Origin: a virus
Taxonomy: Duplodnaviria > Caudoviricetes
DNA: 58,294 nt
Direction: 5' to 3' (one strand)
IMG/VR virus record: IMGVR_UViG_3300038379_000107
Location: 1 to 58,294 of that record
Part shown: positions 9,414 to 58,294 of the stretch, in pieces
How positions within the stretch are numbered: position 1 is the stretch's first letter
Layout of the letters: the number at the start of each line of letters is the position of its first letter
The notes under the pieces: generated by a model
The model's input: the letters and a program-made list of their open reading frames with translations, nothing else
The model's database searches: none
What the model was told of the DNA's origin: nothing
Translations under genes and position numbers: made by a program

Positions 9414-9422
9414 GAGGATGGA

Positions 9423-9880: not shown

Positions 9881-9904
9881 GCGTCCACAAAACAGGAGAA
9901 GCAC

Positions 9905-30634: not shown

Positions 30635-31063
30635 TTATGACAGGGTGAAAATCCCTGAACTATGAAATCCTACAGTTAGGGTATTTCCGTCCGTCGCTGT
30701 GACATCGGCAGGCGTGCTATCTAACAAGCAGTAGCACAGCACCCTCCCACCGCTTTCGTAGATAGCGGCGAACCGCGCCGTGATCGAGCCGCCAGACGCA
30801 GTCCACACCACATCCGCAGGATCATCCACCGTCACGGTAGTCGTGCCAGAAAGAGTCAGCGACCCGATGCTCACGCCACCTGTGGTGTAGCCGTTGGCAT
30901 TGGCATGCTCGTTGGTCACGCCTGCGTAAGTGGTTGTGCCTGCTCCGATGTTGGAGGTAGATAGAAACAACGCCACCAGAAAGGTGTCGGTATCAAGATC
31001 GTAAGTACCGTTGAGGAGGTCGGTACGGCCTACTGATGTGAAGGTCCAAGCGCCAGCCGCCAC
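30635..31063 (-). CDS. small tail protein
   Basis: DLDTDTF.VAL, NGYTTGG and WTASGGSITAR; AAGGAGGTG RBS. Confidence 0.75.
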   Translation of the reverse strand: MAAGAWTFTSVGRTDLLNGTYDLDTDTFLVALFLSTSNIGAGTTTYAGVTNEHANANGYTTGGVSIGSLTLSGTTTVTVDDPADVVWTASGGSITARFAAIYESGGRVLCYCLLDSTPADVTATDGNTLTVGFHSSGIFTLS

Positions 31064-34849: not shown

Positions 34850-35348
34850 GCGTTAGTTCCTTGTCGGATTCCATTCGAGCATTACGTCGGGCTGGCGCAG
34901 GATGGGACGAGGCGGCAGCGTTCAGTTTGGAGATCATGGCCGTCTGGGACCGGCACGTCTCTTCAACTACCTTGAGTTGCGCCTCCAATACCGAAAGCCT
35001 GCCCATCAAAGCCTCGATCATCCCGGCATATTCCAGCACAGAAATCTTGCTGACCAGTTCCCAGCCTACGTCGTCGTACTGGGTGCTGTGAATGAACTTG
35101 GGGTCAGTGACGTGAACGGCATTCTCCACGACGACGTTGGTCATGCCGCGCTGGAGAATCTGGATTGTCAGTCTGCGGTCCACCGGATCACCCGGTCTCC
35201 AGTTGATCCGCTGGGGCGGCATCACTACGCCCACTTCCCAGACGTTCCTGTTCCTGCGCTTGACCAGAACCATCTGGCCAGCCGACACGGCAGGCGTGCC
35301 GGTGAACTCCTCGTGCAAGCGCGTCAATTCCATTGGGTCACTGATCAT
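34836..35348 (-). CDS. hypothetical protein with coiled coil
   Basis: start MISDP overlaps the TerL stop (ATGA). Confidence 0.6.
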   Translation of the reverse strand: MISDPMELTRLHEEFTGTPAVSAGQMVLVKRRNRNVWEVGVVMPPQRINWRPGDPVDRRLTIQILQRGMTNVVVENAVHVTDPKFIHSTQYDDVGWELVSKISVLEYAGMIEALMGRLSVLEAQLKVVEETCRSQTAMISKLNAAASSHPAPARRNARMESDKELTLATS

Positions 35349-42284: not shown

Positions 42285-43139
42285 TTAGAACCTGTTCTCG
42301 TTGACATACTGATCGACCTTCTCAGTAATTTCCTTGGCCCTGGCATCGCCAAGGAACTCGACCAGCTTGGGCCAGTTAGCCTGGACGGAAGCAGCTACGT
42401 TGGCTGCATGATTAGTTTCCATTGCCGTCCTGAGCAGATAGGCAGTACACTTGGATATGATTTGCAGCCCAATCTCAGGCGGGCAGCCTTTGCTCTTGAG
42501 ATCGGACTTCATCAAGTTCATGACCCCGATCCAGTCGAACACTTCCATACCCGTGTCTTCGATGTCCTTCTTGTTGCAGACGTTGGCCAGAGCCTCGTCG
42601 TAGTAAGTCTTCCATTGCTCCGGCCAAGCGTTGATGTCGGGAGGGGCGGCAGCCTGCTTGACGGGCGGCTTCTGCTTGCTTGGAACCGTCCCCATGCCGT
42701 CACTGCTTCGAGTATCAGGATCGTACTCATCCCCACGCTTGAGCATGAGAACGCTCTCCCAAGCTCGCCTCGTGGCATAAGTTATAGCCTTCCCTGGACC
42801 CTTGTCACCCTCATCCAGACCATAACTAGGATCACTTATTTCTAGATACTCACCGCTCTCAACGTGGTAGAGTCTGAAGGTGAAAATATAAGCGTCACAA
42901 TTCATCCGAACTGACCCACGCTGACCAGACCGCTCGTAGGGCGTGCAATTAGTTTGAACGACTACATGAGGGACCATATGCAGGCCAAGAGCCACCGCAT
43001 GATCCCTAATAGCCTCCAGCAGGCCATCGTAGGTAGAAATTTTGTAAGGTAAGTTGCCCTTCTTCTCAAGCGCGATGCCTTCAACCTTTTTTGACAACTC
43101 GTTGACGGCTTTGAGGACTGCTGTTTTGCTTTCCGACAT
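42285..43139 (-). CDS. ERF-family ssDNA annealing protein
   Basis: H.ESGE and GLDEGDKGPGKAITYATR. Confidence 0.85.
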   Translation of the reverse strand: MSESKTAVLKAVNELSKKVEGIALEKKGNLPYKISTYDGLLEAIRDHAVALGLHMVPHVVVQTNCTPYERSGQRGSVRMNCDAYIFTFRLYHVESGEYLEISDPSYGLDEGDKGPGKAITYATRRAWESVLMLKRGDEYDPDTRSSDGMGTVPSKQKPPVKQAAAPPDINAWPEQWKTYYDEALANVCNKKDIEDTGMEVFDWIGVMNLMKSDLKSKGCPPEIGLQIISKCTAYLLRTAMETNHAANVAASVQANWPKLVEFLGDARAKEITEKVDQYVNENRF

Positions 43140-43329
43140 ACGAACTCCTTTTGGCGTGAGCTATGACGATGGCTGCCGGGTTCCAGTTCTTGGCGTTGGC
43201 AATTCCCATGTCCTCAGCCATTTGCTTGGAAGCAGCCAGATAGTTAGTGGTAAACAACTTCTCGAAGCCGCAATCCTTGAGGATGCGGACTTCGGTCATC
43301 CAAGTAACAATAGACTGCTTCCGTGGCAT
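43081..43329 (-). CDS. hypothetical protein, probably leaderless
   Basis: ATG lies 7 nt downstream of the TAACAT -10 box. Confidence 0.5.
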   Translation of the reverse strand: MPRKQSIVTWMTEVRILKDCGFEKLFTTNYLAASKQMAEDMGIANAKNWNPAAIVIAHAKRSSYVGKQNSSPQSRQRVVKKG

Positions 43330-43333
43330 AGGC

Positions 43334-43365
43334 TAAATGTTACCAAATGTTTTACCACTGGTCAA
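43334..43365 (-). promoter_or_regulatory. conserved phage promoter, copy 2
   Basis: TTGACCagtgGTAAAACATTTGGTAACATTTA. Confidence 0.85.
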
Positions 43366-43633
43366 TCTCGGATCGAAGAATCCTGACGTTTTGTGGAGCC
43401 TCGAATCCCAGCACCACTTCAGGCACAGCCTGATTCGTCTTGAGCCCCAGAATGTTCTCGCCACGAATAGGGGTCACGGTGATCGTATCCACAATCCCCT
43501 TGAGCATATGAACATGCCCACCCAGGGATTCGATGATTCTGACAAGGTGCTTGTTCTTGGAATAATCGACATGGAGATTGATGGACTCTGGGTATTCCTG
43601 GTCAATCTTTCTTGATAAAAGCAGCATCCACAA
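43352..43633 (-). CDS. hypothetical protein
   Basis: 93-aa ORF; the C-terminal LGFEAPQNVRILRSEI is reminiscent of CsrA-like proteins. Confidence 0.5.
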   Translation of the reverse strand: MWMLLLSRKIDQEYPESINLHVDYSKNKHLVRIIESLGGHVHMLKGIVDTITVTPIRGENILGLKTNQAVPEVVLGFEAPQNVRILRSEIDQW

Positions 43634-43638
43634 CTCCG

Positions 43639-45738
43639 TTAGGGAATAATCACCCTTGGCTTAACCTGCAACTCACCCACCCCGCCCACCCCGTAGGTCA
43701 CTCCTGCGGGACGTTTGGTGATGTCTGCTCCATTATCCCAGTTGGGCTGATAGTAATAGCCCCATTGTTTCCATTGATCAAGAGTGGGAGTTCGTATTCC
43801 GATGCGTTCGGCGAAGAGTCCTCCAGAACCACGATCCGACCGGACGATTCCTCTCCCGTAGGACTGACTGAATACGACACTTTCAAGATCGGGCTTGTTG
43901 AACTGACTTGCAAGATTGTCACACCTCACCTCCATCTGATCCACCCCACCGCATGGCAGCGAGAGTAGATTGAAATCCGTGTTGCCGACATGGTTTACTT
44001 TGTTGCCTTTGATCGAGAGGACGCCCTGGCAGTACGTCCGGCCTTCTGCGAGGGTTGCGATGTCTTCGTCGATCCAGAGAGATTCGACGTGAAGATGGGA
44101 CCGGAAAGCGTTAGTGATAAAACTTCTTCCGCCTCCGTATTTAAGAGAATTTCTGCAAGTCGTGTTCGATCCGTTGGCAAGATAGAACCCACAAGAATGG
44201 CTCGGTCCTGCCCTCCAGTCCGATCCGATATGACAATCAATAAACTCGAAGTTGACAGATTGGATGCCCGCAATCTTAACTGCCGTCGTCCCCATAAAGT
44301 GACAGTTAATCGCTTTGAGTTCCGAGAGCGAGTGATTCCCGTCTTCCGTTTTCCCTGTGTTCGTGACATTCTGCCATAACCCCCATGAAGGATAGTGTTG
44401 ATTATTGACAATGAACCGGCAATTGTCAAACGTCGGCCCGAACGCCTGACCCCCGCTCCAATCGTGCGCCGCCAATCCTGCCCGGCCCCCTTCGTGTGTG
44501 ATGTGCAAGCCAGAGACGCGCGAGAACTGAGACTCGACTATCAGGGCTTCCCAGTAAATCGAAGGGCTGACGATCCCATCAGGGCAAGAGCGGGTTGTGG
44601 TGAGAGCAATTGAGCCGTCATACTCAACCTTGATCGTGCGGTTGTGCTTCTGGGCTATTCCCAGGCCGGGACCCTCCAATGTCGTAAAAAAAAAACCCAG
44701 GCTTTTCACCCAGGGCGAGGGGAGCCAGTTTCCGAAGTATTCCAGGTGCAGTGGGCAGCGGATAGGACTCAAAGTCCCCCTTACGACCACAGTTGGCGCT
44801 GCAGTGGACCATAATGCCAATTGGAGTTCGTTCGCGTATGACTGGGGAGCGGCAACAGGGACAGGTGTCAATCCAGTCCGATGAAAGTTGAGAATCTGAA
44901 ACCGATCCATCGTCGCTGGCCATAAAAACTCCTCAGTAGGGCGGTTGACATTGTACGGCCCCCAGGAACTCCAGGGGACCGGCTGGCGATGCCATTGGGT
45001 TTCGCCGATCTTTCGCATGTAGAAATAGTAACCTAGGACACCGGGGTAGTACCGATCTGCACGCCTGACCTTTATGCGGTTGTGGTGTGTACGCGGTCGA
45101 TTGGAATCCAGGGGGCAAACCACGGCGGGTGAAAGTATTGTTTCCCCGTTACAACAAACGTTGCTGTAGGCCAGCTCAACGCCGTCATTGGGAAGTGAAT
45201 ACACTCGGACATCGGGCGCACGGCTAGGCTTGTTTTCGGTTGAGGTTGTCCAATAGGCGGTTGGGGTTCCATTGAACTTCTCCTTGTTCGTGGCAACTCC
45301 TCGATGGAACATGCTGAACAGCCAGTCATCTCCGTCAGCGAAGGTGCTGCCCGGCTTGACTACCCAGGAGACAGAGGCTTCTGTTGCGGCTGGAGTCCAC
45401 GCTGCTGTCCCGGCTCTCCGCTCAAAGACTTGCACTCCGGTTGCTGGATTAAGCCGATCAGTTCCCGCAAAGTTAATCCCATACTCGAAGTTGTCGCATT
45501 GAGGGCCGATAAGAGCACTCGGAGAGAGTAAAGAAATACGGCCCAACTTGTCGTAGTGCGCATAAGTGACTTCCCAGTCTCCCGATGGCCTTGGTGCATC
45601 TTGTGAAGCGAACTGCCGGCCATCGAAAACCATCGCTTTCTGCGGAGCTTCGACTTTGAACCAACGTGATTTGAATTGCGGATCGTCCGTGTAGACGGTT
45701 TGGCCTGACAGCAACAGCACAGCTAAGACTTTGAGCAT
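43639..45738 (-). CDS. secreted-type protein with pectin-lyase-like beta-helix C-domain
   Basis: hydrophobic N-terminus; FDNCRF, INCHF and FIDCHI rungs; T10 run in the coding strand. Confidence 0.6.
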   Translation of the reverse strand: MLKVLAVLLLSGQTVYTDDPQFKSRWFKVEAPQKAMVFDGRQFASQDAPRPSGDWEVTYAHYDKLGRISLLSPSALIGPQCDNFEYGINFAGTDRLNPATGVQVFERRAGTAAWTPAATEASVSWVVKPGSTFADGDDWLFSMFHRGVATNKEKFNGTPTAYWTTSTENKPSRAPDVRVYSLPNDGVELAYSNVCCNGETILSPAVVCPLDSNRPRTHHNRIKVRRADRYYPGVLGYYFYMRKIGETQWHRQPVPWSSWGPYNVNRPTEEFLWPATMDRFQILNFHRTGLTPVPVAAPQSYANELQLALWSTAAPTVVVRGTLSPIRCPLHLEYFGNWLPSPWVKSLGFFFTTLEGPGLGIAQKHNRTIKVEYDGSIALTTTRSCPDGIVSPSIYWEALIVESQFSRVSGLHITHEGGRAGLAAHDWSGGQAFGPTFDNCRFIVNNQHYPSWGLWQNVTNTGKTEDGNHSLSELKAINCHFMGTTAVKIAGIQSVNFEFIDCHIGSDWRAGPSHSCGFYLANGSNTTCRNSLKYGGGRSFITNAFRSHLHVESLWIDEDIATLAEGRTYCQGVLSIKGNKVNHVGNTDFNLLSLPCGGVDQMEVRCDNLASQFNKPDLESVVFSQSYGRGIVRSDRGSGGLFAERIGIRTPTLDQWKQWGYYYQPNWDNGADITKRPAGVTYGVGGVGELQVKPRVIIP

Positions 45739-45917
45739 TGCACCTTCCCCATCAACTCCACCAGCATCTCGAAATACTGGTTGCAGAGCATGTTCACGAG
45801 CGAAACGTGATTGACCAATTCCGTTTCCTCCATATTTCCATCCAGGAACTTGCGGTACTGTTCCCGGCGAATCTGATCGGCGGCTTTGAAATCGCGGAGA
45901 CTGTCAGGGTCCATCAC
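45723..45917 (-). CDS. hypothetical protein
   Basis: GAGGGGAG RBS, GTG start. Confidence 0.5.
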   Translation of the reverse strand: MMDPDSLRDFKAADQIRREQYRKFLDGNMEETELVNHVSLVNMLCNQYFEMLVELMGKVQCSKS

Positions 45918-46087
45918 TCCCCCTCAAAATGAATCACAATCGACGCAATCAGCACCAGGGCAATCAAGGATGCCACGATGATTTTTCCAGTGACTTCCCA
46001 ATGAAAAGGAGTCATACGGGACACCGAACCGCCCCGCCTGTTTCGCAACTGTCGAGGGGGTTGGGCGAGATGGATCAACTCCTTTCT

Positions 46088-46609
46088 CTAGCGGACAAAA
46101 ATCGACATAAACCGCCTACCGTCCTGCCCCATGACCCAAGCCGCGCCAGCGTAAGCGTAGTTGTCATAAGTGCAACAACTGCCCCAACCCCATTCAGGTT
46201 CCCATGCAGCACAACCAGCGGCAGCAGCCGAGCCGCCTTCAGGGACATAGCCTAGATCGCCTTCCGGCAAATGCCCTGCTATCAATCGTTCCGCTCTTTT
46301 GCGTGCGACGATCTGGGCGGCTCTGGTCAACAGCCCATCGCGCTTGAACGGTGGCAATCCACGGGCAGCACGCTTGGCGTTGACCTCATCCAGCGCATCA
46401 TCCGAGCCAATAGGGTTAGCCTGCTTGGGCGTGGCAGGCTGGACCTCTTGCGGCTTGGGTAACGGCTGACTTCGGGGGATGACTTGACTTGGAACCACTT
46501 GCCACTGAACCGGCTGGCAATTGTAGCACGCCCGACGCGAACGCCGTTGGGCATATGCCGTGTCCGTGAGTGTCAGGAAAGCTAGGAGCAGGATCGCTAA
46601 ACGCATCAT
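46088..46609 (-). CDS. secreted CAP (SCP/PR-1) domain protein
   Basis: signal peptide; LDEVNAKRAARGLPPF..D.LLT.AA...H; GAAW....G. Confidence 0.8.
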   Translation of the reverse strand: MMRLAILLLAFLTLTDTAYAQRRSRRACYNCQPVQWQVVPSQVIPRSQPLPKPQEVQPATPKQANPIGSDDALDEVNAKRAARGLPPFKRDGLLTRAAQIVARKRAERLIAGHLPEGDLGYVPEGGSAAAAGCAAWEPEWGWGSCCTYDNYAYAGAAWVMGQDGRRFMSIFVR

Positions 46610-46830
46610 TGGCCTCCGATAGAAATGGAAGAATCAAGACGAATAAACTGAAGGTGCATGCCGATAGCGTTGGCTATCGCTTGCGCCTTTGCGCGATGAA
46701 GTTCGCAGATTCCAGCTTCATCATGTCCAGGCCAAGTATAACGATAGACCGCATCGTGTACGCAATCTTTCTGGTTGCACTTCAGCTTTGTGTCAGGAGT
46801 GGCACACATTTCCATCGTAAATATCTCCAA
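46606..46830 (-). CDS. small Cys/His protein
   Basis: C.Q..C...YTWPG...C..H; ATGA coupling. Confidence 0.55.
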   Translation of the reverse strand: MEIFTMEMCATPDTKLKCNQKDCVHDAVYRYTWPGHDEAGICELHRAKAQAIANAIGMHLQFIRLDSSISIGGQ

Positions 46831-46863
46831 GAGAATGCCCCCAACTGAGGGCAGCTAATCACA

Positions 46864-47178
46864 TCATCCACCACCACGGCGGAAGACGGAACGCCTGAAC
46901 ACAGGCTGATATTGTTGTATCGTCGTCGTGCCCGCTGGCATCTGGACAAACTGGTGTGAGTGCATGCCGGGAGCAAGGGCCGGAACCGGAATGGATGCCG
47001 CAATAGCACCCGTTTGCCCAGGTGAAGATTGCGGTTCCGGTTCCGGCTTTTCCTGCGGCTTGACCTTCTCGCTTTCGACCACCCAGGCCCAGGCTGCTTG
47101 GGCTTTGGCAGTGGCCTTGTCGTTGGCATCGACTGGGAGAGCCAGGAACACGGACAGGAGTGCAAGAAAGGTTTTCAT
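46864..47178 (-). CDS. secreted-type protein
   Basis: GGAGG RBS; MKTFLALLSVFLALP signal peptide; Pro/Glu linker. Confidence 0.6.
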   Translation of the reverse strand: MKTFLALLSVFLALPVDANDKATAKAQAAWAWVVESEKVKPQEKPEPEPQSSPGQTGAIAASIPVPALAPGMHSHQFVQMPAGTTTIQQYQPVFRRSVFRRGGG

Positions 47179-47466
47179 GACCCCTCCCAAGAATGCAAGG
47201 CGTTTTCTTGCCAAGGGGACATTTCATTTTCCCACTTAGCAGAATTGCGGTCGGCTACGCCAAGGGCTTGATTCCCTGGCTCAGAGTAATCATCATCCCA
47301 GCAATGTTCGCAGCAATGAAAAGATTCCTTCTCACGCACAACCAGGCTTACTGCTCTGATTAAACCGCACTTGGAGCAACGTCCTCTCATTGTCGTTTCC
47401 TCCCGAATCGTGCAGAGAACCAAAAGGACTGTCAGGATCAACAGTTCCTTTTGGGGTTTGGTCATG

Positions 47467-47973
47467 TCATTTGCCGAGCCACTTCAGGATGAGGTTGATG
47501 ATGATCGGGCCGAGGATTTGAATAATCATGAGCCAAGGGAATCCCACGGCAACACGAACACGGTCATCATCGGTAAACACTTCGTTGCCGTTTTTATCTT
47601 TGGCGTGCAGCACCTTCATGATGCGCGGGCGAGTCCGCATGTAGCGGGCACGTTCCGGGCTGACTCCCGCCGCCGTGGTAAACGCATCAATGTCAGCCAC
47701 CGAGAACTCGCGGGGCGATTCAACGTAATCATCGCCAGCAGCACCAACGACGATTGGCCCTTGAACGCCGATCTTATCAATCAGGCTGTAAAGGACATCC
47801 TTGAGCGGATTGATGAGCAAGGCCACTGCCGAACTGACCGCAGGGCGAAACGACTCCAACGCTTGATCAGCCGCGCTCTTGAGCCGTGCCTTGTCAACTT
47901 TGGTTAAGTCCGGCTTGAGCAAGTCCAGAATGAAGTCGGTAAACCGATTCTCCATCAAGTCGTGTTCCATCAT
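47467..47973 (-). CDS. protein with C-terminal amphipathic/TM helix
   Basis: ends VGFPWLMIIQILGPIIINLILKWLGK. Confidence 0.65.
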   Translation of the reverse strand: MMEHDLMENRFTDFILDLLKPDLTKVDKARLKSAADQALESFRPAVSSAVALLINPLKDVLYSLIDKIGVQGPIVVGAAGDDYVESPREFSVADIDAFTTAAGVSPERARYMRTRPRIMKVLHAKDKNGNEVFTDDDRVRVAVGFPWLMIIQILGPIIINLILKWLGK

Positions 47974-47980
47974 TTTCTCC

Positions 47981-48328
47981 CTAGTTGGTAGGCGTGGGGA
48001 CGGGAACGAACGGCCCGAAATACTTGGACAGCATTTGGAGCAGGAATTGGATCACCTTCTTTATTCCGTCGCTCATGCCAGTGGTGTCGATGCCGGACGT
48101 ATCCTTGATCGCAGCTTCGCTGGCAGCGTGCATGGGCAGCATGACCACGGGCGGGTCTTCTACGCCAAACATTTTACAGATCATGTTGACCAGCCCGTCA
48201 CGACCTGCGATAAACCAGGACGCTACCTTGTCATCCCATTTGTTGGCCGTGTTGAGCGTGCCGGTCTTGATGCGATCAAGAACCAAGTCTACTGCCTGTT
48301 CCACGTCGGTTCTGCTAAGCCAAGCCAT
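47981..48328 (-). CDS. protein with C-terminal amphipathic helix
   Basis: T.NKWDD motif; IKKVIQFLLQMLSKYFG. Confidence 0.65.
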   Translation of the reverse strand: MAWLSRTDVEQAVDLVLDRIKTGTLNTANKWDDKVASWFIAGRDGLVNMICKMFGVEDPPVVMLPMHAASEAAIKDTSGIDTTGMSDGIKKVIQFLLQMLSKYFGPFVPVPTPTN

Positions 48329-48340
48329 AAAGCCTTTCTC

Positions 48341-49153
48341 CTAGTTAGTTGACGGAGACACAGCGCGAACCGCTATGCCGCCATCAGGAATTGCCTTCTT
48401 GCCCATGAGGGTGAACCGGCCCTTGTCCCCCCAACCATCCGTCCATGAGTTGTCGCCTTCGGGCCATACTTCCCCGTCTTTCTCAACAGGAGTATCCAGT
48501 TCCACAGAATGTCCCCACCAATTGAAGTCGTAAGCGCCGGGGATGCATAGCAGCAAGCAAGTCATCATTTGGTCGTAGGTCATGTTGCGGTCATAGGCTT
48601 GCTTGGTAACGTCGTACCAGCCCTCAGTGATGCGATGGCCGGCAGCATTCTCCCAGGTCGCTGCATTGTCGTGGGATCGACTCATGGACTTCTCAGTCCA
48701 AAATTCCACTGATGGAACACCTCGATCACAGATGAATTGCTGGGATAGACCGCACCAACCACCCTCATCCCTAAACCCTTTGATGATGCAAGCCACGGCA
48801 TGAGCGGAGAGCCTGACGTAAGGCAGATTCATGATGGCCCGTTGATACATCACTGCTCGCGTGACGCTATAGGCCCAGCAATATCCCTGGCCATTCTGGT
48901 CAAGCGTGGGCATCTGCTGGCCGTTGGCTGCGATCTCACGCAAATGGCGAAGCGTAGCCTTTCTCTCCCACAGTTCACGGCATCGAGGAATCCACTCGTT
49001 GCGAGGAATGACCTTGAGTTGGTCCGGGGCTTCACCGAACAATGGGCGCAAGCCTGAATCGGCTGGAACCTGCGATGGGTCATGCCCTCGGCCAAAGGCT
49101 TTTGGGTAGATGATGTCATTGTTCGTGCTGTCGTCGATAATAAAATCGCTCAT
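48341..49153 (-). CDS. papain-like (C1) cysteine peptidase
   Basis: DQNGQGYCWAY (Gln/Cys), WGHSV (His), NSW..GWG..G.F (Asn). Confidence 0.88.
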   Translation of the reverse strand: MSDFIIDDSTNNDIIYPKAFGRGHDPSQVPADSGLRPLFGEAPDQLKVIPRNEWIPRCRELWERKATLRHLREIAANGQQMPTLDQNGQGYCWAYSVTRAVMYQRAIMNLPYVRLSAHAVACIIKGFRDEGGWCGLSQQFICDRGVPSVEFWTEKSMSRSHDNAATWENAAGHRITEGWYDVTKQAYDRNMTYDQMMTCLLLCIPGAYDFNWWGHSVELDTPVEKDGEVWPEGDNSWTDGWGDKGRFTLMGKKAIPDGGIAVRAVSPSTN

Positions 49154-50043
49154 CCACCGAACCTCTTGAGGAGTGCCATGAGTTCCGTTGTGGTTTTTGG
49201 CAACGGCCCTTCATAGCCCGTCTTGCCAGTGCTGATCAGAATCCAAGGCAGCTTGTTCTCCGCGATTGCTTTCTTGATGGAGTCCCTGGCCATCGCGTCT
49301 TTCCAGATGGACGATTCACTTGCCCACTTGGAGTCCTTGGCAATGTCTTTGTCGTACAGCCTCCATTCCGGCCAGTTGTTGACCTTGGCGCACTTGGCGT
49401 TGAGGTATTGCCGCACCTCCTGAGAGTTGATCGCTGCAATTTGCGATGAAGGAAGGCCGCTATTCTCAAACGTCTCAAGCACCATCAGCACCCGAAACCC
49501 TTCCGCAGGAATCGGCGTAGGATCGGGCGTTGGATCAGGCCCGGGCGGATCAGGCGGCTTTGGCCCCTTGCCCACCGTCACATTCACTTCGCCATAGATC
49601 GAAGGTGGGGCTTCCTTGGTTACCCCGTTTTGCGCCGCTACTAGCCGCGCCGCACCTTCCTTGTTTCCAATCAGAACCGCCCATCGGAAAGTCTGCGGTG
49701 AGAAGTAGTGCGTTTTCTTGACCGTGTCCCCGGCGCGAACTCCCCGGATCATGAACGGAACGCCCGCATCGATCTCGATTCGCTCTACGATGGTTTCATC
49801 ATTCGTGATCCAAAGCAGCGGACTGGTAGACGGGCTTTCTTTCTTCGGATGCACACACTCGAACTGGTCGATCTCCAGTTTCAGCTTCACACCATCGGCT
49901 GCATTGATGATCGCCCTGGCCTTGGCTTCCTCCGCTTTGGCTTTGGCGATTTCTTCTTTGGAGTATGCCCCGCCGACTGTGATTTGCCCGTAGGCGGGAA
50001 GGGCTAGGAAGATGTAGAGCAGGAAGGATAGGACTACACGCAT
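49150..50043 (-). CDS. secreted protein with Pro linker and thioredoxin-like C-domain
   Basis: signal peptide from MRVVLSF; PKPPDPPGPDPTPDP; LPWILI...GPLP; ATGA-coupled to the protease. Confidence 0.7.
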   Translation of the reverse strand: MRVVLSFLLYIFLALPAYGQITVGGAYSKEEIAKAKAEEAKARAIINAADGVKLKLEIDQFECVHPKKESPSTSPLLWITNDETIVERIEIDAGVPFMIRGVRAGDTVKKTHYFSPQTFRWAVLIGNKEGAARLVAAQNGVTKEAPPSIYGEVNVTVGKGPKPPDPPGPDPTPDPTPIPAEGFRVLMVLETFENSGLPSSQIAAINSQEVRQYLNAKCAKVNNWPEWRLYDKDIAKDSKWASESSIWKDAMARDSIKKAIAENKLPWILISTGKTGYEGPLPKTTTELMALLKRFGG

Positions 50044-50104
50044 TAGATACTCCGTTTCCTTGATGAGATTGACAGTGTACCAGATCGGCAAATTCTTTTC
50101 CAGA

Positions 50105-50591
50105 TCATTTTACCCTGATTTTTCGCGTCTCGCCAAACCAGCCGTACATGACCCCCGTATTACGGTCGTAGATCGGCACGCCCCTGGCTTCACACCAAAC
50201 ATCCCGCCCCGCCTCTGTCACAAAGCGGAAGCGAACCACATACTGCCGCCTCTCCGCATGAGCCGCCTTGACTTCCCGCATGACGGCATCAGTATCGTCA
50301 GGGTGGAGAATCACCCGCCAGTCCAGACCAAGGAACTCTCGTTCCGTTCGTCCTGCTAGTCGGCACAAGGCAGGATTGACCAAAACGCATCGCTCGTCCG
50401 CATCAGTCTCCCAACGGGCAGTCGAGCAAAGTTGCCAGATGGCTTTGAGTTTGAGAATCTCTTTGTGGTCGTCAACGAAGGCGGGAATCGGCGGCTCTTT
50501 CCGCCATGAATCGGCCCGTCCAAAAAACAAAGACTGTAACAAAGACCATTGTCAATGCGATGGCAACGATGCGAATACTGCGTCCGTTCAA
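50105..50591 (-). CDS. membrane-anchored PAS-domain protein, +1 frameshift
   Basis: TTG start gives a TM helix; removing one base at 50483-50485 joins it to the PAS fold (VNPA...G...LHPDD...RF...G..VW...RG.P). Confidence 0.8.
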
Positions 50592-51205
50592 GGCTTGTGC
50601 TCCGGTGGAGGCACGGGAGGAGACGGAAGCTTGCTTCCAAGCCAGCCCGTGATGGCATCTCTGATCTTGTTGGACGTAATGAAGCTCATCAGTACGTCGG
50701 CCAACAGGGAGATGACCACGGCAATCAGGAGGACACGATGGTAAAGCGGTGGAGGCCAGAGTTCAATGGCGACGTAGGCACTGGTCCCCAGTCCAAGAAT
50801 GAAGGACACCATGATGAACGCACCGCGCTTGTAGTACGTCCAAGTATTGACCTCGGTAGCAAACACCTTGTCCTTGAATACCTTGGACCAGTAGCCACCC
50901 CAGGCTCCAAGGAACGAGCCACCTACCCAGACAAGCCAAAAGAACGGATCGTGCAGGTGGGCGTTGGCTAAAAGTATCTCATGATCCTCCGGGGTCAGGT
51001 CGGCATTGCGCATCAGTCGCGCCTCCCTCTCGCTGTCGTCCTTCTTTCCCGGTTCAAGCTTCTTTGGAACGTCCTGTGGTGGCGGAGGCAGTTCTGCCAC
51101 AGAAGAGAAGGAAGACGAGGCGCTGTGTCCCAGCATCGTCACCACGCCCAGCCCGGCGAAGATGAACCCAATCATGACCAGCATGGAATAGAAGGTCTGC
51201 TTCAC
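50588..51205 (-). CDS. multi-TM membrane protein, holin candidate
   Basis: about 4 hydrophobic helices; first gene of the membrane cassette. Confidence 0.6.
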   Translation of the reverse strand: MKQTFYSMLVMIGFIFAGLGVVTMLGHSASSSFSSVAELPPPPQDVPKKLEPGKKDDSEREARLMRNADLTPEDHEILLANAHLHDPFFWLVWVGGSFLGAWGGYWSKVFKDKVFATEVNTWTYYKRGAFIMVSFILGLGTSAYVAIELWPPPLYHRVLLIAVVISLLADVLMSFITSNKIRDAITGWLGSKLPSPPVPPPEHKP

Positions 51206-51207
51206 GT

Positions 51208-51627
51208 CTACCTCCCCTGAGCATAGATGTTGCAGGTCGAGGTGTTGGCCCCCGTGGCCACCGTGAACCGCCAGTAGCGGAACAGAGTGTACTGAGGCTG
51301 GTTCTTGTAGCCCAGGATGATGTGATCAGTTGCGCCAGCAGCAATCGCCAGCGGCAGGGCCACGGAAACGTCTGCCTCGTCGTAGGCATTGGCCAGGTTA
51401 AGCCAACCGCTCGATTCGCCCTTATCATTGCTGACGTACACATCCAGATTAATAGCCACCGAAGCATGCGTGTTCTTGAGTGTGATTGAAACAGAATGCA
51501 GGCCCAGCGCGCCTGAGTCGATGACGAGGATATTGGTTTCTGTGGTCGTGACCGGGAAGGCCATGACACGCGAGAACGACAGGTTTCCACGCTCCGTCAT
51601 GGATGAGTAATTGTGGTCGGCAGCCAT
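51208..51627 (-). CDS. small beta-rich virion protein
   Basis: jelly-roll-like pattern (LDVYVSND.G...W, FRYWR); follows the capsid genes. Confidence 0.55.
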   Translation of the reverse strand: MAADHNYSSMTERGNLSFSRVMAFPVTTTETNILVIDSGALGLHSVSITLKNTHASVAINLDVYVSNDKGESSGWLNLANAYDEADVSVALPLAIAAGATDHIILGYKNQPQYTLFRYWRFTVATGANTSTCNIYAQGR

Positions 51628-51645
51628 CTGAAGCTCCTATGAGAA

Positions 51646-51676
51646 CCCCTACCGCAGATTGCTCCACGGTAGGGGA
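51646..51676. other. hairpin after the capsid operon
   Basis: CCCCTACCG...CGGTAGGGG. Confidence 0.5.
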
Positions 51677-51695
51677 TAGTTTTACCGCAGATGGA

Positions 51696-52292
51696 TTACT
51701 TGTAGAGGCTGTAGACGTAGATCAGCTTGTGGATATCCCAAGCTGTTGCGTCATTGACCGTCACCTCTTCGGCGAAGCCGCAAACACCATTAGTTTGACC
51801 GAACGTCGCAGCCCCGGCAGCCACAGCTACGTCCTGGCCAAACACCTTGCCCGACCCAGCGCACACCAGGGGCTCGCCGGGAACCGTGGCCACCTGAGTA
51901 TCGGTCGAGCCGTGATACTTGGCGTAGTGAACACCCTCGATCACGATGCGGAAGATGGCATTGGCTGGAACGCCAGCGGTGTAGCCATCCTCGACAAAGC
52001 CAGCAATCTTGTCATTGGCATCGCCCAGAGCGTCGATGTTCTTACGGAAGTCGCCCGCCGTAATACCAAAGGTCACAGCCAGATTTCTGGTCAAGGTTCC
52101 ACCAGAGGTGTTCTTGACCAGTCGAATCCAGCGCGGCTTGTTGGTACGGTAGCCAGTCGTGCTGCTGATGTTACCTACGTCGTAGTAAACGTGGCCAAGC
52201 TTGTTGGTATCCAGTTCGATGCCACGAGTGGTATCGGCAAGTTCGTAGTCACCCTGAGCAAGAGGGCAGACGGCAAAGTGCGGAGTAAGCAT
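51696..52292 (-). CDS. capsid decoration/cement protein
   Basis: directly after the MCP; VKN.SG.TL, GV.....F.IV.EG and GEPL. Confidence 0.6.
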   Translation of the reverse strand: MLTPHFAVCPLAQGDYELADTTRGIELDTNKLGHVYYDVGNISSTTGYRTNKPRWIRLVKNTSGGTLTRNLAVTFGITAGDFRKNIDALGDANDKIAGFVEDGYTAGVPANAIFRIVIEGVHYAKYHGSTDTQVATVPGEPLVCAGSGKVFGQDVAVAAGAATFGQTNGVCGFAEEVTVNDATAWDIHKLIYVYSLYK

Positions 52293-52335
52293 GTGTTTGT
52301 TTCCTTTCCTTTAGAAACAAGTACAAGGGTCAGGG

Positions 52336-53568
52336 TTAGACTGTGTAGTTGCCCAGCGGATACCAGAAGCACAGCTTCCGTGGGCTGACGATGATGAACT
52401 GGCCATGACTGCGCCCGCCGAACATCACGCCGCTTCCACCAGGAATGTCTTCCTCATGAATGACCATGAGGCGATTCATGCCGGTCGGCCCCATGCTGTG
52501 GACGGTGCGATACTCGATGGCGTCCATGTTGACCCCGATCAAGAGGTCGTCGTCGCCGATGTCAATGTCGGTGGCCAGGAAGCAGCCGTTGTGAACGATG
52601 CAGGGCAGACCTGTATTCCAGGCATTCATCGAGCCCGTGGTCATAGACCCTGTGGCAGGCGTGGGAACCATTTCGGTGATTTGCCGCTGCGTCGTCTGGA
52701 ACCGCTTACGCCAGATCAGCATGTTCTTGGTGGACATGAGGATCAGTTCGAGCGGGCCCTTGGTCGCTACCGTGTTGTTCTTGGCTGCGTACTCAATACC
52801 GAAGTTAAGTTGGTCTTCACAGTAGGTTTCGTTGAACGCGGCATCGGTCGCACCCCAACCCTGGCTGGTCGTGTTGACCACCAGAGGCGACCAACAGTCA
52901 AACTTGCCTTCGCCGCTACCGGCAGGCCAGTAGTGGAAGACAGCCGAGTCCGCCGTGTTGGTGTAGGTGGTTGTTCCGTTGGCTCCGGCCCAGTTGCCGC
53001 CAATGGCTCCCAGTGTGGTGTCGTAACCAGCATAGGTTCCGTTGGGCAAGCGAACCTTGCCCTCGTAGCCCTGTCGCGGCGCACCTGCCGTGGCGGTGGC
53101 TGCCGTGTAATAACGGAAGGCCGACTTGAGGCCGAACATCGGCATTTCTTCGGTGGCCGTGGTTCCATCCTGAAACATCAGGGCGGGCCACTCTTCCGAG
53201 AACGCCTTCTCCACGGAACGCTGCATGTTGGCATAGAGGTCGATGAACCTCTCTTTGCCCATGTTCTGTTCCAGGTCGATCACATGCAACTGTTCGCCGT
53301 AGAAGTACGCGCCCCAGTTGAGTTGCGGCATGCGCAGGTTGTCAGCCGTGACAAACGTGGGAGGAGTATTGCGGCCAAAGCCCGTGGGGCGCTTGGCGTT
53401 GGCGAACAGCGGCCATTCCACGAATCGGCCACCGCTGGGGCCGGTGATGCGGCCACGGTTGGACATGAACGACAAGAGGTGTCGCTTGCGAATGGTGAGG
53501 TCGGTGGTTTGGTCGAGGCGCGCCTGCCATGTGGCAGTGTACTGCTGGATGGTGGTCGTACCAGGCAT
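52336..53568 (-). CDS. major capsid protein
   Basis: 410 aa; SGGRFVEWPL, NW..Y, N.GKE..IDL, F.DGT and FGL pattern; downstream of a scaffold-like gene. Confidence 0.8.
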   Translation of the reverse strand: MPGTTTIQQYTATWQARLDQTTDLTIRKRHLLSFMSNRGRITGPSGGRFVEWPLFANAKRPTGFGRNTPPTFVTADNLRMPQLNWGAYFYGEQLHVIDLEQNMGKERFIDLYANMQRSVEKAFSEEWPALMFQDGTTATEEMPMFGLKSAFRYYTAATATAGAPRQGYEGKVRLPNGTYAGYDTTLGAIGGNWAGANGTTTYTNTADSAVFHYWPAGSGEGKFDCWSPLVVNTTSQGWGATDAAFNETYCEDQLNFGIEYAAKNNTVATKGPLELILMSTKNMLIWRKRFQTTQRQITEMVPTPATGSMTTGSMNAWNTGLPCIVHNGCFLATDIDIGDDDLLIGVNMDAIEYRTVHSMGPTGMNRLMVIHEEDIPGGSGVMFGGRSHGQFIIVSPRKLCFWYPLGNYTV

Positions 53569-53614
53569 GGAATGGACTTCCTGTAGTCAAAAGTCCATCA
53601 GATTTTTTCAACAG

Positions 53615-54727
53615 TTATCGACCGCGAATGTGCCTTAGATAGTCCAAGCCTGATTTGCCATCTGGAATGTTTGCCAAATCTCTTTGCAATGCCGTCCTGA
53701 AATCCATCGTCGGTTGCTGGTGGCCGTTGATATTTGCCACCTGTGCAGCCCCCGTGTTTTTATGTGCCGCAAACAAGCTTGTCAAGTCGTCATGCTTGAC
53801 TTGAGCCGGTGGACTCTGTCCGCCAGCCGCCTGTTTTTGATTCGCCTGCTTGAGCGCCTGCCTGTCCTTGGCGATTCTGATCGCCATCTTGGCCAGGGCA
53901 GCCTTGCTCTGGAACTGGCCTGTTTGTTCCAATTCCTGAGCAGCGATGTTGAACTCTACACCAAGAGGCGAGAGCTTGTCAATAGCCTGTCCATCCATTC
54001 CGAACTCACGGGCAGGGCTGCCATCCGGACCCATCTCAAAGAGATCGTTGCGATACTGCGTCATGAACTGGTCGCTCTCCCACCGCTCGCGTTCCTTGGC
54101 CATGCGCTCATCAACAGCCTTCTGGATCGTCTGTTCGTGTTCGGGAAGGAACCCGCCCTGAACCACTGTGTTCTGCCTGACGGCCCGGACCTGATCGTTC
54201 CAGTTCTTATCCTGAGCCACCTGTTGGAAATACGGGTGGAGAACAGTAGGAACCCACTGCTGGGTCTGCGGGTCACGGGCGATCATCGTTTCCCACGAAG
54301 GAGGAAGCGGCTTCTCGGTGAGTTGTTGTTGCTGCGTCTGTTGGGTAGGCTGCACTTGTTGTTGCTGAACTTGCGCTTGCGACTGGTACTGCTGCGCCTG
54401 CTGGCTACGAAGGTACTGAACTGCCTTGATGCCATTGAGCATCATGTTGCTAATGATGGCGGGGTCAGACGGAATCTGATCCACAGAAACACCTACGGCT
54501 TGAGCCAGAGTATTCCTGAAAGAAGAGAATTGATCAACTTGCTGCTGCTGAACTTGCTGCTGTTGTGGCGGCTGCTGAACGACTTGCCCAGTCTGGGGAT
54601 TGATCGGAGCGTATTGAATTTGAGGCGTGGTTTGAGGAGCCTGCTGGATGGGTTGTTGAACAGGTTGCTGTTGTACTGGCTGCTGACCTTGAGGCTGCTG
54701 GAATCCACCTACCAAATCCGTTGACAT
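53615..54727 (-). CDS. capsid scaffolding protein
   Basis: Q/P-rich disordered N-terminus, helical core, immediately upstream of the MCP. Confidence 0.65.
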   Translation of the reverse strand: MSTDLVGGFQQPQGQQPVQQQPVQQPIQQAPQTTPQIQYAPINPQTGQVVQQPPQQQQVQQQQVDQFSSFRNTLAQAVGVSVDQIPSDPAIISNMMLNGIKAVQYLRSQQAQQYQSQAQVQQQQVQPTQQTQQQQLTEKPLPPSWETMIARDPQTQQWVPTVLHPYFQQVAQDKNWNDQVRAVRQNTVVQGGFLPEHEQTIQKAVDERMAKERERWESDQFMTQYRNDLFEMGPDGSPAREFGMDGQAIDKLSPLGVEFNIAAQELEQTGQFQSKAALAKMAIRIAKDRQALKQANQKQAAGGQSPPAQVKHDDLTSLFAAHKNTGAAQVANINGHQQPTMDFRTALQRDLANIPDGKSGLDYLRHIRGR

Positions 54728-54754
54728 CAAATGTCCCTTGTGCAAGAGAATCAA

Positions 54755-54785
54755 CGGTGGGAGAGCGTAAGCTCTCCCCCACCGC
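54755..54785. other. hairpin between ssb and scaffold
   Basis: GGTGGGAGAGC-GTAA-GCTCTCCCCACC. Confidence 0.55.
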
Positions 54786-54859
54786 ACTGTTGAACCCCTC
54801 TGATGTATGGGGCTAAACGCGATTCTACATCATGGAACTATGCTGTCAACAGAAGTTTG

Positions 54860-55288
54860 CTACCAGGATGCTCCCGGCAACGCTCCTTGCTCCTGACGTG
54901 CTTCGTGCCCACCATTCCCATCGCCACCATCATCCTTGCGATCCAGGAACAAAATGTTATCCACCTCGATCACGATCTTCTGCTTCTTCTCGCCAGTCGT
55001 GCGATCATCCCATCGTTCCAATTGCAGCCGTCCTTCAAGATAGCATTGCTTCCCCTTGGCCAGATACTTCTCCACCAGGTCAGCATTCTTGCCGTACCCC
55101 CCCTTGTTGAACGCCTTACAATCCAGGAAGCAAGGCTCTCCCTCCCACTTGCCCGTATCATTGTTCTTGACGCGCTTGCCCGTCACGGCAAAGCCAAAGT
55201 TGGCTACCTTGCCGCCATTCTGGAACGTCCTGATTTCAGGATCACGAGTCAGCCTGCCAATCAATTGGACCTTGTTCAAATCCGCCAT
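54860..55288 (-). CDS. ssb: single-stranded DNA-binding protein
   Basis: LNKVQLIGRLTRDPE, KYLAKG and EGRLQ..W. Confidence 0.93.
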   Translation of the reverse strand: MADLNKVQLIGRLTRDPEIRTFQNGGKVANFGFAVTGKRVKNNDTGKWEGEPCFLDCKAFNKGGYGKNADLVEKYLAKGKQCYLEGRLQLERWDDRTTGEKKQKIVIEVDNILFLDRKDDGGDGNGGHEARQEQGALPGASW

Positions 55289-55320
55289 AGCGCACTCCCT
55301 TAAAAAGGTTGGATACAAAC

Positions 55321-55386
55321 ACTTTAACAAAAACGAGACTTCGGCTCAAGATTCTTCTTGATCTTTTTTCCCAAATAGTTTACTAT
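55321..55386. promoter_or_regulatory. divergent promoter pair
   Basis: leftward TTGAGC-17-TAAAGT; rightward TTGATC(55358)-17-TACTAT(55381); strand switch point. Confidence 0.65.
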
Positions 55387-55427
55387 TTAACTCAGCCGGG
55401 ACGCTGAAGGTGCAGAGGGATGCAGTG

Positions 55428-55931
55428 ATGGACGAAGGCGCGATTATACGAATGTGGCTTGAGTCAAAAGATGTGGCACTCAAGGATGATGATCTTGTCG
55501 AATTGGGGCGTTGCGACGATGCAACCGCGTATCAGTGTCCAACTGGGAAAAAGGACCACGTTGCCTTGCGCATGTTTGAAGAACCTGAATTACCTGCAAT
55601 GATCCTCAACTGCTTTATTTGTAAAAAACAGTGGGTCATTGCCGCCACAAATTCCAGTTACGCCAGCGCCTCTATTGCAATAGAAGAAGCACGCTTTCTG
55701 CGTCGTCTCGAACTCTCATCTGAGTTCGTCAAAAAAACATACAAGGAACCATCTAAGATGACTGGCGAAGAACTGGCATCTATACACCACAGTCAAGGAA
55801 TTGACCCAGAGTCCATTTCCGCGATCCTTAGATTCTTTTTCTCAAAGGAAGTGATGAACGATTACCATTCAGCATGGGAATTGCACTGCAAGACCGGCAG
55901 TAATCGTGCCAAGCCCCACAGGGAGACTTAG
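55428..55931 (+). CDS. protein with alanyl-tRNA-synthetase-like helical fragment
   Basis: EEARFLRRLE...MTGEELASIHHSQGIDPE...YHSAWELH resembles AlaRS EEERF..TL...SGE.AF.L.DT.G.P.D...F...MEE. Confidence 0.55.
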   Translation: MDEGAIIRMWLESKDVALKDDDLVELGRCDDATAYQCPTGKKDHVALRMFEEPELPAMILNCFICKKQWVIAATNSSYASASIAIEEARFLRRLELSSEFVKKTYKEPSKMTGEELASIHHSQGIDPESISAILRFFFSKEVMNDYHSAWELHCKTGSNRAKPHRET

Positions 55932-56923: not shown

Positions 56924-57298
56924 ATGGATAAGCCGACGTTGCCCAAACGATGGCAACCGCCTTTTGAAGCAGTTGATGACGGTGATGGAAGGTGCTCTGT
57001 TTACGCTAGTGACACTTATGTGTGCATTGGTGATTATGCACGGCTTCGAGATGATGAAGCTAAAGCCATCGCCTACGCCCTGAACCAGGTCTACGGCCCG
57101 AACGGACTTGAGGCTGAGAACGAGCGGCTGAAATCCGCCCTTGAATCAATTCAACTTGTCGTCAGGGCGCAAAAGGAAGATGCCCCTGAGATGGCATCTG
57201 TCAGCAGGTTGCAGTATCTGCACCAAGTTATTGATAGTGTTGGGCAAGAACTGAAAAAGCGGGTTGCGCTTTTGGAGAATCCACAGGACGAATTGTGA
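56924..57298 (+). CDS. cassette protein 1 (unique N-terminus plus shared coiled-coil C-terminus)
   Basis: AAGGAG RBS; C-terminal half encoded by both repeats. Confidence 0.7.
   Translation: MDKPTLPKRWQPPFEAVDDGDGRCSVYASDTYVCIGDYARLRDDEAKAIAYALNQVYGPNGLEAENERLKSALESIQLVVRAQKEDAPEMASVSRLQYLHQVIDSVGQELKKRVALLENPQDEL
57103..57205 (+). repeat. direct repeat A, copy 1 (at least 103 bp)
   Basis: identical to 58192-58294. Confidence 0.95.
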
Positions 57299-57331
57299 AC
57301 CAAGAACCCGAAAGGAAGGTGAGAGCGATGG
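57249..57331 (+). repeat. direct repeat B, copy 1 (83 bp)
   Basis: identical to 57669-57751; includes stop, RBS and ATG. Confidence 0.95.
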
Positions 57332-57718
57332 CCTGGGTGTTTAAGTTCGGGCAGATGGTGCGGCACATTGATACTAAACGGATCGCGTTTGTGATTGCCG
57401 ACAGTGCTCCTGCGCACGCTTATGTCACGGTTTGGCCAAGCGGCGCGCCGGAACCCGCTGAATGGCATCGTGCAAACATCGAACCCATCCCCACCGGCGA
57501 CTGGCGGGAGAGGTGGGAGGAGAAGTCGAAGCATGGATGGCTGGTTCTTTATGTAAACGAGCAGGCCGCTCTTTCCGTACAGCAAGTTGCACTTGGCATA
57601 GATGTTGTTCGCGGCCTTGGCGACCTCATCCCCCGCATCCCGCCCGCGAAAAGAGAGCGAATTGGAGCAACTGAAAAAGCGGGTTGCGCTTTTGGAGAAT
57701 CCACAGGACGAATTGTGA
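57328..57718 (+). CDS. cassette protein 2 (+1 frameshift near its end)
   Basis: removing one A at 57649-57652 gives ...PAKESELEQLKKRVALLENPQDEL*. Confidence 0.6.
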
Positions 57719-57751
57719 ACCAAGAACCCGAAAGGAAGGTGAGAGCGATGG
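57669..57751 (+). repeat. direct repeat B, copy 2
   Basis: identical to 57249-57331. Confidence 0.95.
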
Positions 57752-58153: not shown

Positions 58154-58294
58154 ATGGATGTGATGGAAGTTCCAGAAGGCACTTACTTCAGCGGACTTGA
58201 GGCTGAGAACGAGCGGCTGAAATCCGCCCTTGAATCAATTCAACTTGTCGTCAGGGCGCAAAAGGAAGATGCCCCTGAGATGGCATCTGTCAGC
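58154..58294 (+). CDS. cassette protein 3, partial at the window end
   Basis: MDVMEVPEGTYFS runs in frame into GLEAENERLKSALES (repeat A). Confidence 0.6.
   Translation, partial: MDVMEVPEGTYFSGLEAENERLKSALESIQLVVRAQKEDAPEMASVS
58192..58294 (+). repeat. direct repeat A, copy 2
   Basis: identical to 57103-57205; the sequence ends inside it. Confidence 0.95.

Follow-up and report, generated by a model that had tools for sequence, protein, structure and literature searches.

Introduction

For nearly all tailed phages, escape from the host cell is attributed to an endolysin that cuts peptidoglycan. Among the described systems closest to the locus considered here are the lambda-type holin-endolysin(-spanin) cassettes (S/R/Rz/Rz1) and PlyC, a two-gene endolysin in which PlyCA carries a papain-fold CHAP domain and PlyCB is the docking subunit. 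Here we analyse a stretch of 13 minus-strand genes (positions 51205-43639) from an uncultured podovirus-like phage, which encodes, among other things, a papain-family cysteine peptidase and, directly upstream of it, an exported partner protein. The window under study, a single linear contig (58,294 bp), is the entire assembly, and the virus record to which it belongs is rated 89% complete. We show that the partner and the peptidase form a pair which moves as a unit between unrelated phages, and we consider whether this pair might act on the host envelope.

An initial annotation, made from the letters of the window alone, had treated the stretch as an endolysin-less cassette of about 11 genes and proposed that it may be an uncharacterised protease-based system for lysis or envelope remodelling. 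Part of that proposal holds up: exported and membrane proteins do abound in the stretch, and its peptidase is intact. However, only the pair is conserved, and the last gene of the stretch is depolymerase-like. A full-text literature search, judged by titles and abstract openings, returned no report of a protease-partner module of this kind.

A partner-peptidase pair shared by unrelated phages

The partner gene (49150-50043, on the minus strand like every gene of the stretch) encodes 297 amino acids (aa) from an ATG at 50043, the longest open reading frame (ORF) starting at a TTG at 50091. The gene for the 270-aa peptidase (48341-49153) follows directly, its start overlapping the partner stop by 4 nt. 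Alignment-based scans yielded 21 related viral loci and three in bacterial assemblies; such scans were needed because single-sequence pattern scans gave no relative in genome contigs and one in viral contigs. A partner lies immediately upstream of the peptidase, on the same strand, in 23 of the 24 loci by BLAST and in all 24 by all-against-all clustering, and the partner stop and peptidase start fall within 4 nt of each other in 14/23.

The rest of the stretch behaves differently. When its other genes were sought in the 24 loci at a BLAST threshold of 1e-4, the CAP-like gene was matched in L001 only and the 168-aa gene in L008 only, and the others nowhere; L001 also has a PAS ORF downstream of its pair. 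The pair itself is accompanied by terminases of at least three types (Terminase_6N, TerL_ATPase/nuclease and GpA) and by portals of two families, and it moves as a unit between unrelated phages. The idea that the whole cassette is one system did not survive this synteny check, in which an 11-13-gene cassette was not conserved and only the pair was. Because it is the pair alone that recurs across the loci, we infer that the unit of selection is the partner-peptidase pair and not the 7.6-kb cassette. The PAS protein, the CAP-like protein, the small membrane proteins and the tailspike-like beta-helix protein are lineage-specific neighbours, not parts of one conserved machine.

The complete bacterial genome G360 has a copy of the pair in a 40-kb prophage. 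Downstream of that copy come first a trypsin-like serine protease of 377 aa whose N-terminus is hydrophobic (L029:18536-19669, minus strand; Trypsin_2, 1.5e-10) and next a cadherin-domain protein of 1598 aa.

The papain-family peptidase

Against the Pfam C1 profile (PF00112) the window peptidase scores 18.7 bits (1.9e-3), under the gathering cut-off of 20.7, and some of its relatives carry a precomputed PF00112 label. Residues Q86, C92, W93, H215, N235, S236 and W237 are invariant in 20/20 aligned members, and the profile built from these 20 members finds chymopapain at 1.8e-12, with the Cys lobe and the His/Asn lobe matched separately. The same profile matches 103 solved sequences at E <= 0.01, chymopapain being the best. 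By its sequence the protein is evidently a true C1A-type cysteine peptidase, albeit of an unusual leaderless kind, and the intact Q/C/H/N set recognised at the outset is borne out. A hydrophobic N-terminus is absent from all 20 aligned peptidases, hence there is no signal peptide. Nor does the enzyme have a long prodomain; a conserved N-terminal extension of about 47 residues stands ahead of the mature-like domain.

The family is large and, so far, metagenomic: 1043 relatives at E <= 1e-3 were collected among 1411 candidates, nearly all of them 250-300 aa long. With three diverse members as queries, no relative was found among 50,697 deposited phage records.

Some relatives, although not the window enzyme, carry an intein at the active site. 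In L005 the peptidase ORF (8714-10528) is 604 aa long and contains a LAGLIDADG_3 domain (8e-8). The N-extein ends in GQGY, and the 340-aa insert starts with Cys and ends in SN; immediately after it comes the catalytic Cys, the first residue of CWAYS. An intein of about 340 aa with a LAGLIDADG homing endonuclease is thus placed directly before the catalytic Cys, so that the protease nucleophile is also the intein +1 residue. The same C-junction, N followed by CW, is present in at least 36 of 40 long relatives (P0197-P0236), and several of the 40 bear the Pfam labels Hint, Intein_splicing or LAGLIDADG. Inteins favour conserved sites of important genes. Since this one recurs at the catalytic Cys, the active site is probably under strong constraint and the gene probably matters to the phage. 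With an intein at this position, splicing must precede the placement of the protease nucleophile.

The exported partner

All 23 partner homologs examined have a hydrophobic N-terminus, in agreement with the initial description of the window protein as a secreted partner. An AlphaFold2 (AF2) model of the latter, with a mean predicted local distance difference test score (pLDDT) of 85 that rises above 95 over the last 115 residues, shows a signal-peptide helix, a short helix, an Ig-like (Big_2-type) sandwich at residues 46-157, a Pro-rich linker and an alpha/beta domain at residues 184-297. In structural comparison (VIA), residues 181-297 reach Z 7.7 to the b' domain of ERp27 (root-mean-square deviation (rmsd) 3.2 over 92 aligned residues) and Z 7.2 to several thioredoxins (90-92 aligned at an rmsd of about 3.3). 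As modelled, the C-terminal domain has a thioredoxin fold, although values of Z below 8 show a shared fold only. There is no CxxC motif in this domain, as neither the window protein nor the consensus has a Cys pair after the first strand. The cis-Pro position is retained, P266 being nearly invariant. The partners of L017-L020, and only these, have an extra C-terminal thioredoxin-like domain which does contain CxxC, and in L002 the ORF that follows the peptidase (7641-8099) gives a weak Thioredoxin_2 match (3e-5).

Members of the chagasin family of cysteine peptidase inhibitors make up four of the top 30 Foldseek matches of the Ig-like domain: amebosin (6cjz, 1.5e-4), PbICP-C bound to falcipain-2 (2.4e-3), EhICP2 (2.7e-3) and chagasin (9.5e-3). 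In VIA comparisons residues 44-158 score Z 7.2 with EhICP2 and Z 6.5 with chagasin, values with which generic Ig domains tie (PADI6, 7.1; a phage SU10 tail protein, 7.0; Big_2). The matches of this domain in the viral database BFVD are Big_2 proteins, and the partner gave no Pfam Inhibitor_I42 match at E <= 0.1. The domain is moreover optional, being missing from the 142-165-aa partners of L002, L011, L014 and L023 and from the 139-aa partner of G360. In view of the tied Z scores, the Big_2 matches and the absence of the domain from the shortest partners, we have downgraded a chagasin-type inhibitor to a generic Ig-like domain or spacer, leaving the former a small chance.

A possible role in lysis

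We tentatively read the partner-peptidase pair as an envelope-acting protease module that serves for lysis or assists it, a reading to which we give somewhat less than an even chance. On this reading, the leaderless peptidase would accumulate in the cytoplasm and enter the periplasm late in infection, once the products of small membrane-protein genes next to the pair have breached the inner membrane; there the previously exported partner would dock or position it. By cutting some protein or peptide of the envelope it would then allow the progeny to leave, and the pair would be either a substitute for an endolysin or a helper in lysis. The bolder version, in which the papain-type peptidase and its exported thioredoxin-fold partner are the lysis enzyme and replace a muralytic endolysin in a broad set of uncultured phages, those of Planctomycetota included, seems to us doubtful. 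Because the pair is found with different terminases and portals, it would appear to be specific to the host rather than to the virion.

The genes around the pair are in keeping with such a role. Small ORFs (45-170 aa) with a transmembrane (TM)-like segment make up 13 of 24 within 1.5 kb downstream of the peptidase vs 18 of 119 lying more than 2.5 kb away (Fisher p 1.1e-4), and the first ORF downstream is small and hydrophobic in 9/19 loci. This tendency fits an envelope or lysis module.

The searches for an endolysin point the same way at first sight. They relied on family profiles, and structures were predicted for two proteins only (the partner and the 699-aa protein), so hidden muralytic folds among the unassigned ORFs are possible. 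In the window no lysozyme, amidase or transglycosylase family was matched in about 98 ORFs by Pfam or in 65 ORFs by PHROGs, which upholds the original remark that no endolysin can be recognised anywhere in the 58 kb, and no muralytic family was matched by NCBIfam in 17 ORFs of the cassette region. The surroundings of the pair elsewhere gave the same outcome: none of 271 ORFs (>=110 aa) within 10 kb of it at 19 non-redundant loci, and none of 48 ORFs of the 40-kb pair-bearing prophage, has a muralytic domain, and at none of the 24 loci does a recognised endolysin lie beside the pair. A six-frame search was also made with ten muralytic Pfam families (Phage_lysozyme, Amidase_2, SLT, Glyco_hydro_25, Peptidase_M15_4, Amidase_3, NLPC_P60, CHAP, Peptidase_M23 and Glyco_hydro_19), and it found none in 15 pair-bearing virus records, six of them at least 90% complete; the window record (G000) gave no match to any of the ten. 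Elsewhere in the window, a 289-aa ORF (2689-3558, plus strand) matches PHROG 4191, labelled 'peptidase' (7.2e-7), and has M42/M28 aminopeptidase-like metal-binding motifs by eye; it is without a Pfam or PDB match and is no evident cell-wall enzyme.

Several of our observations nevertheless weigh against a role in lysis. The zeros for muralytic families in the viral records stand without a positive control, and Glyco_hydro_19 (PF00182) was also matched in no control genome, so that its zero counts for nothing. Phages that appear to lack the pair give the same result. Among 42 viral loci with the window's type of terminase, and with the records of L005 and L015 set aside, we took the five largest records; the peptidase family is absent from four of the five, and the remaining one has a distant match (5.3e-8). 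Phage_lysozyme (PF00959), Amidase_2 (PF01510) and SLT (PF01464) were found in none of the five (G418 and four partial records). A full Pfam scan of the 51 ORFs of pair-less G418, which is 87% complete, and of 19 of the 34 ORFs of G419 (the 15 omitted having lengths that duplicate structural genes of G418) returned no muralytic family either. The missing 13% of G418 could hold an endolysin or the pair. Complementarity, in which pair-less relatives would carry an ordinary endolysin, gained no support, as none was found in the terminase-related records. Because pair-less relatives also lack a recognisable endolysin, its absence looks like a trait of such uncultured phages that is not tied to the pair, and the failure to find one may reflect divergence only. 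As evidence for lysis, the 'endolysin-less' character of the stretch is therefore weaker than it looks, although no endolysin has come to light.

The remaining points concern the proteins and the layout of the locus. No C1A enzyme is known to cut peptidoglycan. All 40 of the longer relatives examined (about 550-720 aa) lack a cell-wall-binding domain, the Pfam domains listed for them being mostly intein or C1. The lysis reading does not account for the redox-inactive thioredoxin fold of the partner. The enrichment of TM-like ORFs beside the pair comes from a hydropathy scan of crudely called ORFs, at loci that are not independent. Finally, the window pair lies 11 kb from the terminase, and the would-be holin of the stretch has no relatives in the 24 loci.

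Evidence on the host is indirect. Of the three loci in bacterial assemblies, two carry the titles Gemmata sp. and Planctomycetota bacterium, one relative is named from Gemmata, and the complete genome with the pair-bearing prophage is one of a set of genomes sampled from the same phylum. In this set, 401 genomes from the phylum to which the Gemmata metagenome-assembled genome belongs, the peptidase family occurs in two (at 1e-10); given this count, it is not a common prophage gene in the genomes searched. The link to planctomycetes drawn at the outset thus gains some titled loci and one prophage, but a planctomycete host for the window phage is indicated only indirectly.

Alternative explanations

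The absence of a signal peptide also suits a peptidase that stays in the cytoplasm and acts there in host takeover or counter-defence, with the exported partner merely co-transcribed and doing a separate job such as superinfection exclusion. In both the window and L008 the genes that surround the pair are those of recombination and replication, and the pair-less relative, which is equally without a recognisable endolysin, is accommodated without difficulty. However, the strict adjacency of the two genes at all 24 loci and the frequent overlap of stop and start argue for a joint function, the partner is always exported, and genes for membrane proteins are enriched beside the pair. We consider this explanation unlikely.

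A closer functional tie is supposed if the partner is a dedicated inhibitor or chaperone which restrains or protects the peptidase, whatever its target, either through a chagasin-like Ig-like domain or through a thioredoxin fold acting as a chaperone. Translational coupling of the genes would be expected of such a pair, and the chagasin-family matches and Z scores given above lend it some colour. Against this, the Ig-like domain is the variable part of the partner and is missing from the short ones, generic Ig domains reach the same Z, and the viral matches are to Big_2, with Inhibitor_I42 unmatched. Furthermore, enzyme and partner are made in different compartments. Taken together, this makes an inhibitor or chaperone improbable, and less credible again than a cytoplasmic protease.

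A virion-associated entry enzyme, packaged or tail-bound and digesting a proteinaceous surface layer at infection, is a very improbable account. A leaderless enzyme would suit assembly in the cytoplasm, and the pair lies beside tail-fibre or tailspike genes at several loci (a Peptidase_S74 spike in L004, a beta-helix protein in L006, the 699-aa protein in the window). Nonetheless, an exported and strictly coupled partner is ill-suited to virion assembly, the virion modules that accompany the pair are unrelated to one another, and no PHROG structural family was matched.

That the peptidase is the capsid maturation (prohead) protease, a possibility raised in the initial annotation and suggested by the position of the window pair 3 kb after the capsid genes, has a negligible chance of being right and is rejected: in the relatives the pair is unlinked to capsid and portal genes and travels among different terminase and portal families (in L005 it precedes the terminase, while a separate block holds the portal, two ORFs of 197 and 401 aa and the capsid gene), its partner is exported, and no known prohead protease has a papain-type fold.

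Other genes of the stretch and of the window

The stretch belongs to a run of minus-strand genes that extends from an SSB gene (54860-55330) down to position 13156. On the capsid side, SSB is followed by a 390-aa ORF, the major capsid gene, two small ORFs and then the 51205-43639 stretch. The major capsid gene (52336-53568, minus strand) is recognised by NCBIfam capsid_maj_Podo at 2.9e-9, below the curated cut-off, and by a PHROG major head protein family at 1.7e-3. Beyond the stretch come Erf, a ParB-like ORF, a helicase and a Gp157/Gam-like gene, then the large terminase (35345-37147, minus strand) and a probable portal, and then the tail genes. The stretch is a mosaic of late or accessory genes of an uncultured podovirus-like phage. 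It was described as some 11 co-oriented and often coupled genes after the capsid operon; the orientation, the tight packing and the position after the capsid gene are as described, but the number is 13, with products of 54-699 aa. Spacing between the ORFs ranges from -40 to +45 nt, with three overlaps of 4 nt. A scan of 43000-55500 for promoters and terminators gave counts no higher than in shuffled sequence.

A 19-residue hydropathy scan places a TM-like segment in five of the 13 ORFs, and three further ORFs (the 96-aa, CAP-like and 699-aa products) have short signal-like N-termini by eye. Hydrophobic signal or anchor segments are therefore present in 8/13, in line with the view that most of these genes have features of this kind. 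No holin or spanin family was matched by any ORF of the stretch.

The first gene encodes a 205-aa membrane protein (50588-51205) with hydrophobic segments at residues 8-26, 129-147 and 158-176 in the scan. The label 'holin-like' fits its topology, but no Pfam, PHROG or NCBIfam family was matched. Next comes a stand-alone PAS-domain protein of 145 aa (50105-50542), for which PAS_3 is matched at 3.3e-16 (59.8 bits vs a cut-off of 25.6) and TIGR00229 at 4.4e-13. It had been called a TM-PAS protein; the PAS domain is secure, but the scan finds no hydrophobic segment, so the protein appears to be soluble.

Downstream of the peptidase lie a 115-aa protein (47981-48328) of unknown family, with no hydrophobic segment and absent from the related loci, and the 168-aa protein (47467-47973), which has a C-terminal hydrophobic anchor at residues 141-159 and whose one homolog, in L008, is directly downstream of the peptidase. 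They are followed by a 96-aa protein (47175-47465), matched to no family, with a short hydrophobic N-terminal stretch that is seen by eye and lies below the threshold of the scan, the remainder being Cys-rich; by a 116-aa protein (46864-47214) with a signal-like N-terminus and a Pro-rich middle; and by a 74-aa Cys/His-rich protein (46606-46830) with no match to a Pfam, PHROG or NCBIfam family.

The next product, an exported protein of 173 aa (46088-46609), was first identified as a CAP protein. We find the assignment to CAP/SCP borderline: Pfam CAP (PF00188) is matched at 4.4e-3 with 18.3 bits vs a cut-off of 21.1, over positions 1-42 of 117, which is the first third of the profile. Its homolog in L001 reaches 25.0 bits, again over the N-terminal part of the profile only, and a PDB search returned chance-level matches only (GAPR-1, E 0.88). 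A 54-aa protein with a C-terminal TM segment (45914-46078) and a soluble 64-aa protein of unknown family (45723-45917) lead to the last and longest gene.

This gene (43639-45738) encodes a 699-aa right-handed beta-helix protein that is tailspike- or polysaccharide depolymerase-like and has a short signal-like N-terminal helix. It has 61 remote homologs and, in agreement with the beta-helix predicted at the outset, gave an AF2 model with a pLDDT of 85 and a predicted template modelling score (pTM) of 0.89. In VIA comparisons this model scores Z 17.9 with alginate lyase (6kfn; rmsd 2.7, 259 aligned), 17.5 with CBA120 TSP4 and 15.6-16.2 with the Sf6 tailspike, and Z 14-18 across the 50 beta-helix lyases, hydrolases and tailspikes listed. 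Foldseek E-values are weak, the best being for the P22 tailspike (7.8e-3), and a PDB sequence search gave no match, whether with the protein alone or as a profile. From the model, the protein would have a tailspike-like depolymerase fold, and nothing evident ties it to a lysis system.

Immediately after the beta-helix gene, a 93-aa ORF (43352-43633, minus strand) matches CsrA, a global RNA-binding regulator (1.4e-6; 28.6 bits vs a cut-off of 27). Further away, a GroEL-like gene (11940-12929, plus strand) encodes only 329 aa and matches Cpn60 profile positions 1-214 of 490 (2.4e-37); the equatorial N-terminal part leads, with little in between, into a C-terminal tail rich in Gly and Met, and the apical domain is seemingly missing. 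The structural region has two paralogous ORFs (30635-31063 and 25603-25998, both on the minus strand), which are assigned to PHROG 644, a family of unknown function, with E-values of 1.3e-27 and 1.4e-39, respectively. Two plus-strand ORFs (5085-6044 and 9680-10558) share long low-complexity tracts rich in Ala, Trp and Glu (of the AAWAAEAA type), the antisense frames of which read as poly-Pro and poly-Gly. The contig also contains exact direct repeats of 103 nt (57103-57205 and 58192-58294, the second copy at the contig end) and 83 nt (57249-57331 and 57669-57751). Both may be an assembly effect or a terminal repeat structure; the two contig ends share no repeat.

Comparison with known systems

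If the envelope reading is correct, a widespread and mobile protease-plus-partner module in phages without a recognisable endolysin would point to a different chemistry of lysis. Alternatively, the pair may represent a helper step, so far overlooked, that targets a proteinaceous part of the envelope. In both cases the result would bear on the breaching of protein-rich envelopes, of which those of Planctomycetota are an example. The peptidase family has more than 1000 metagenomic members and none in deposited phages, and no isolate is at hand.

The locus shares with the lambda-type cassettes a leaderless enzyme gene beside genes for small membrane proteins, a frequent position between replication and packaging or structural genes, and exchange of the module between unrelated phages. 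It differs in that the enzyme is a papain-type protease instead of a muramidase, amidase, transglycosylase or known cell-wall endopeptidase, in that no holin or spanin family accompanies it, and in that the exported partner has no classical counterpart. The likeness to PlyC is one of organisation: there are two gene products, of which one is catalytic with a cysteine nucleophile and the other, here by analogy, may dock. There is no sequence relation, CHAP being found in 0/15 pair-bearing records, and PlyCB, unlike the phage partner, is not known to be exported ahead of its enzyme.

For the partner, the nearest known structures are redox-inactive thioredoxin-fold domains (ERp27 b', PDILT b'), which are the best fold matches of its C-terminal domain and with which it shares the retained cis-Pro; it differs from them in being phage-encoded and, as predicted, periplasmic. 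The chagasin/ICP inhibitors (MEROPS I42) offer the parallel of an Ig-like sandwich beside a C1 peptidase gene, whereas in the partner family this domain is optional and has no Pfam I42 match. The peptidase itself compares most closely with papain family C1A (PF00112; chymopapain, cathepsins S/K/L, falcipains), with which it has in common the same Gln/Cys/His/Asn/Trp set at the same spacing and profile homology over both lobes. It departs from the usual secretory zymogen layout of that family, in that it has neither a signal peptide nor an I29-type prodomain, and it stands apart from it in being phage-borne and always coupled to an exported partner with a predicted thioredoxin fold.

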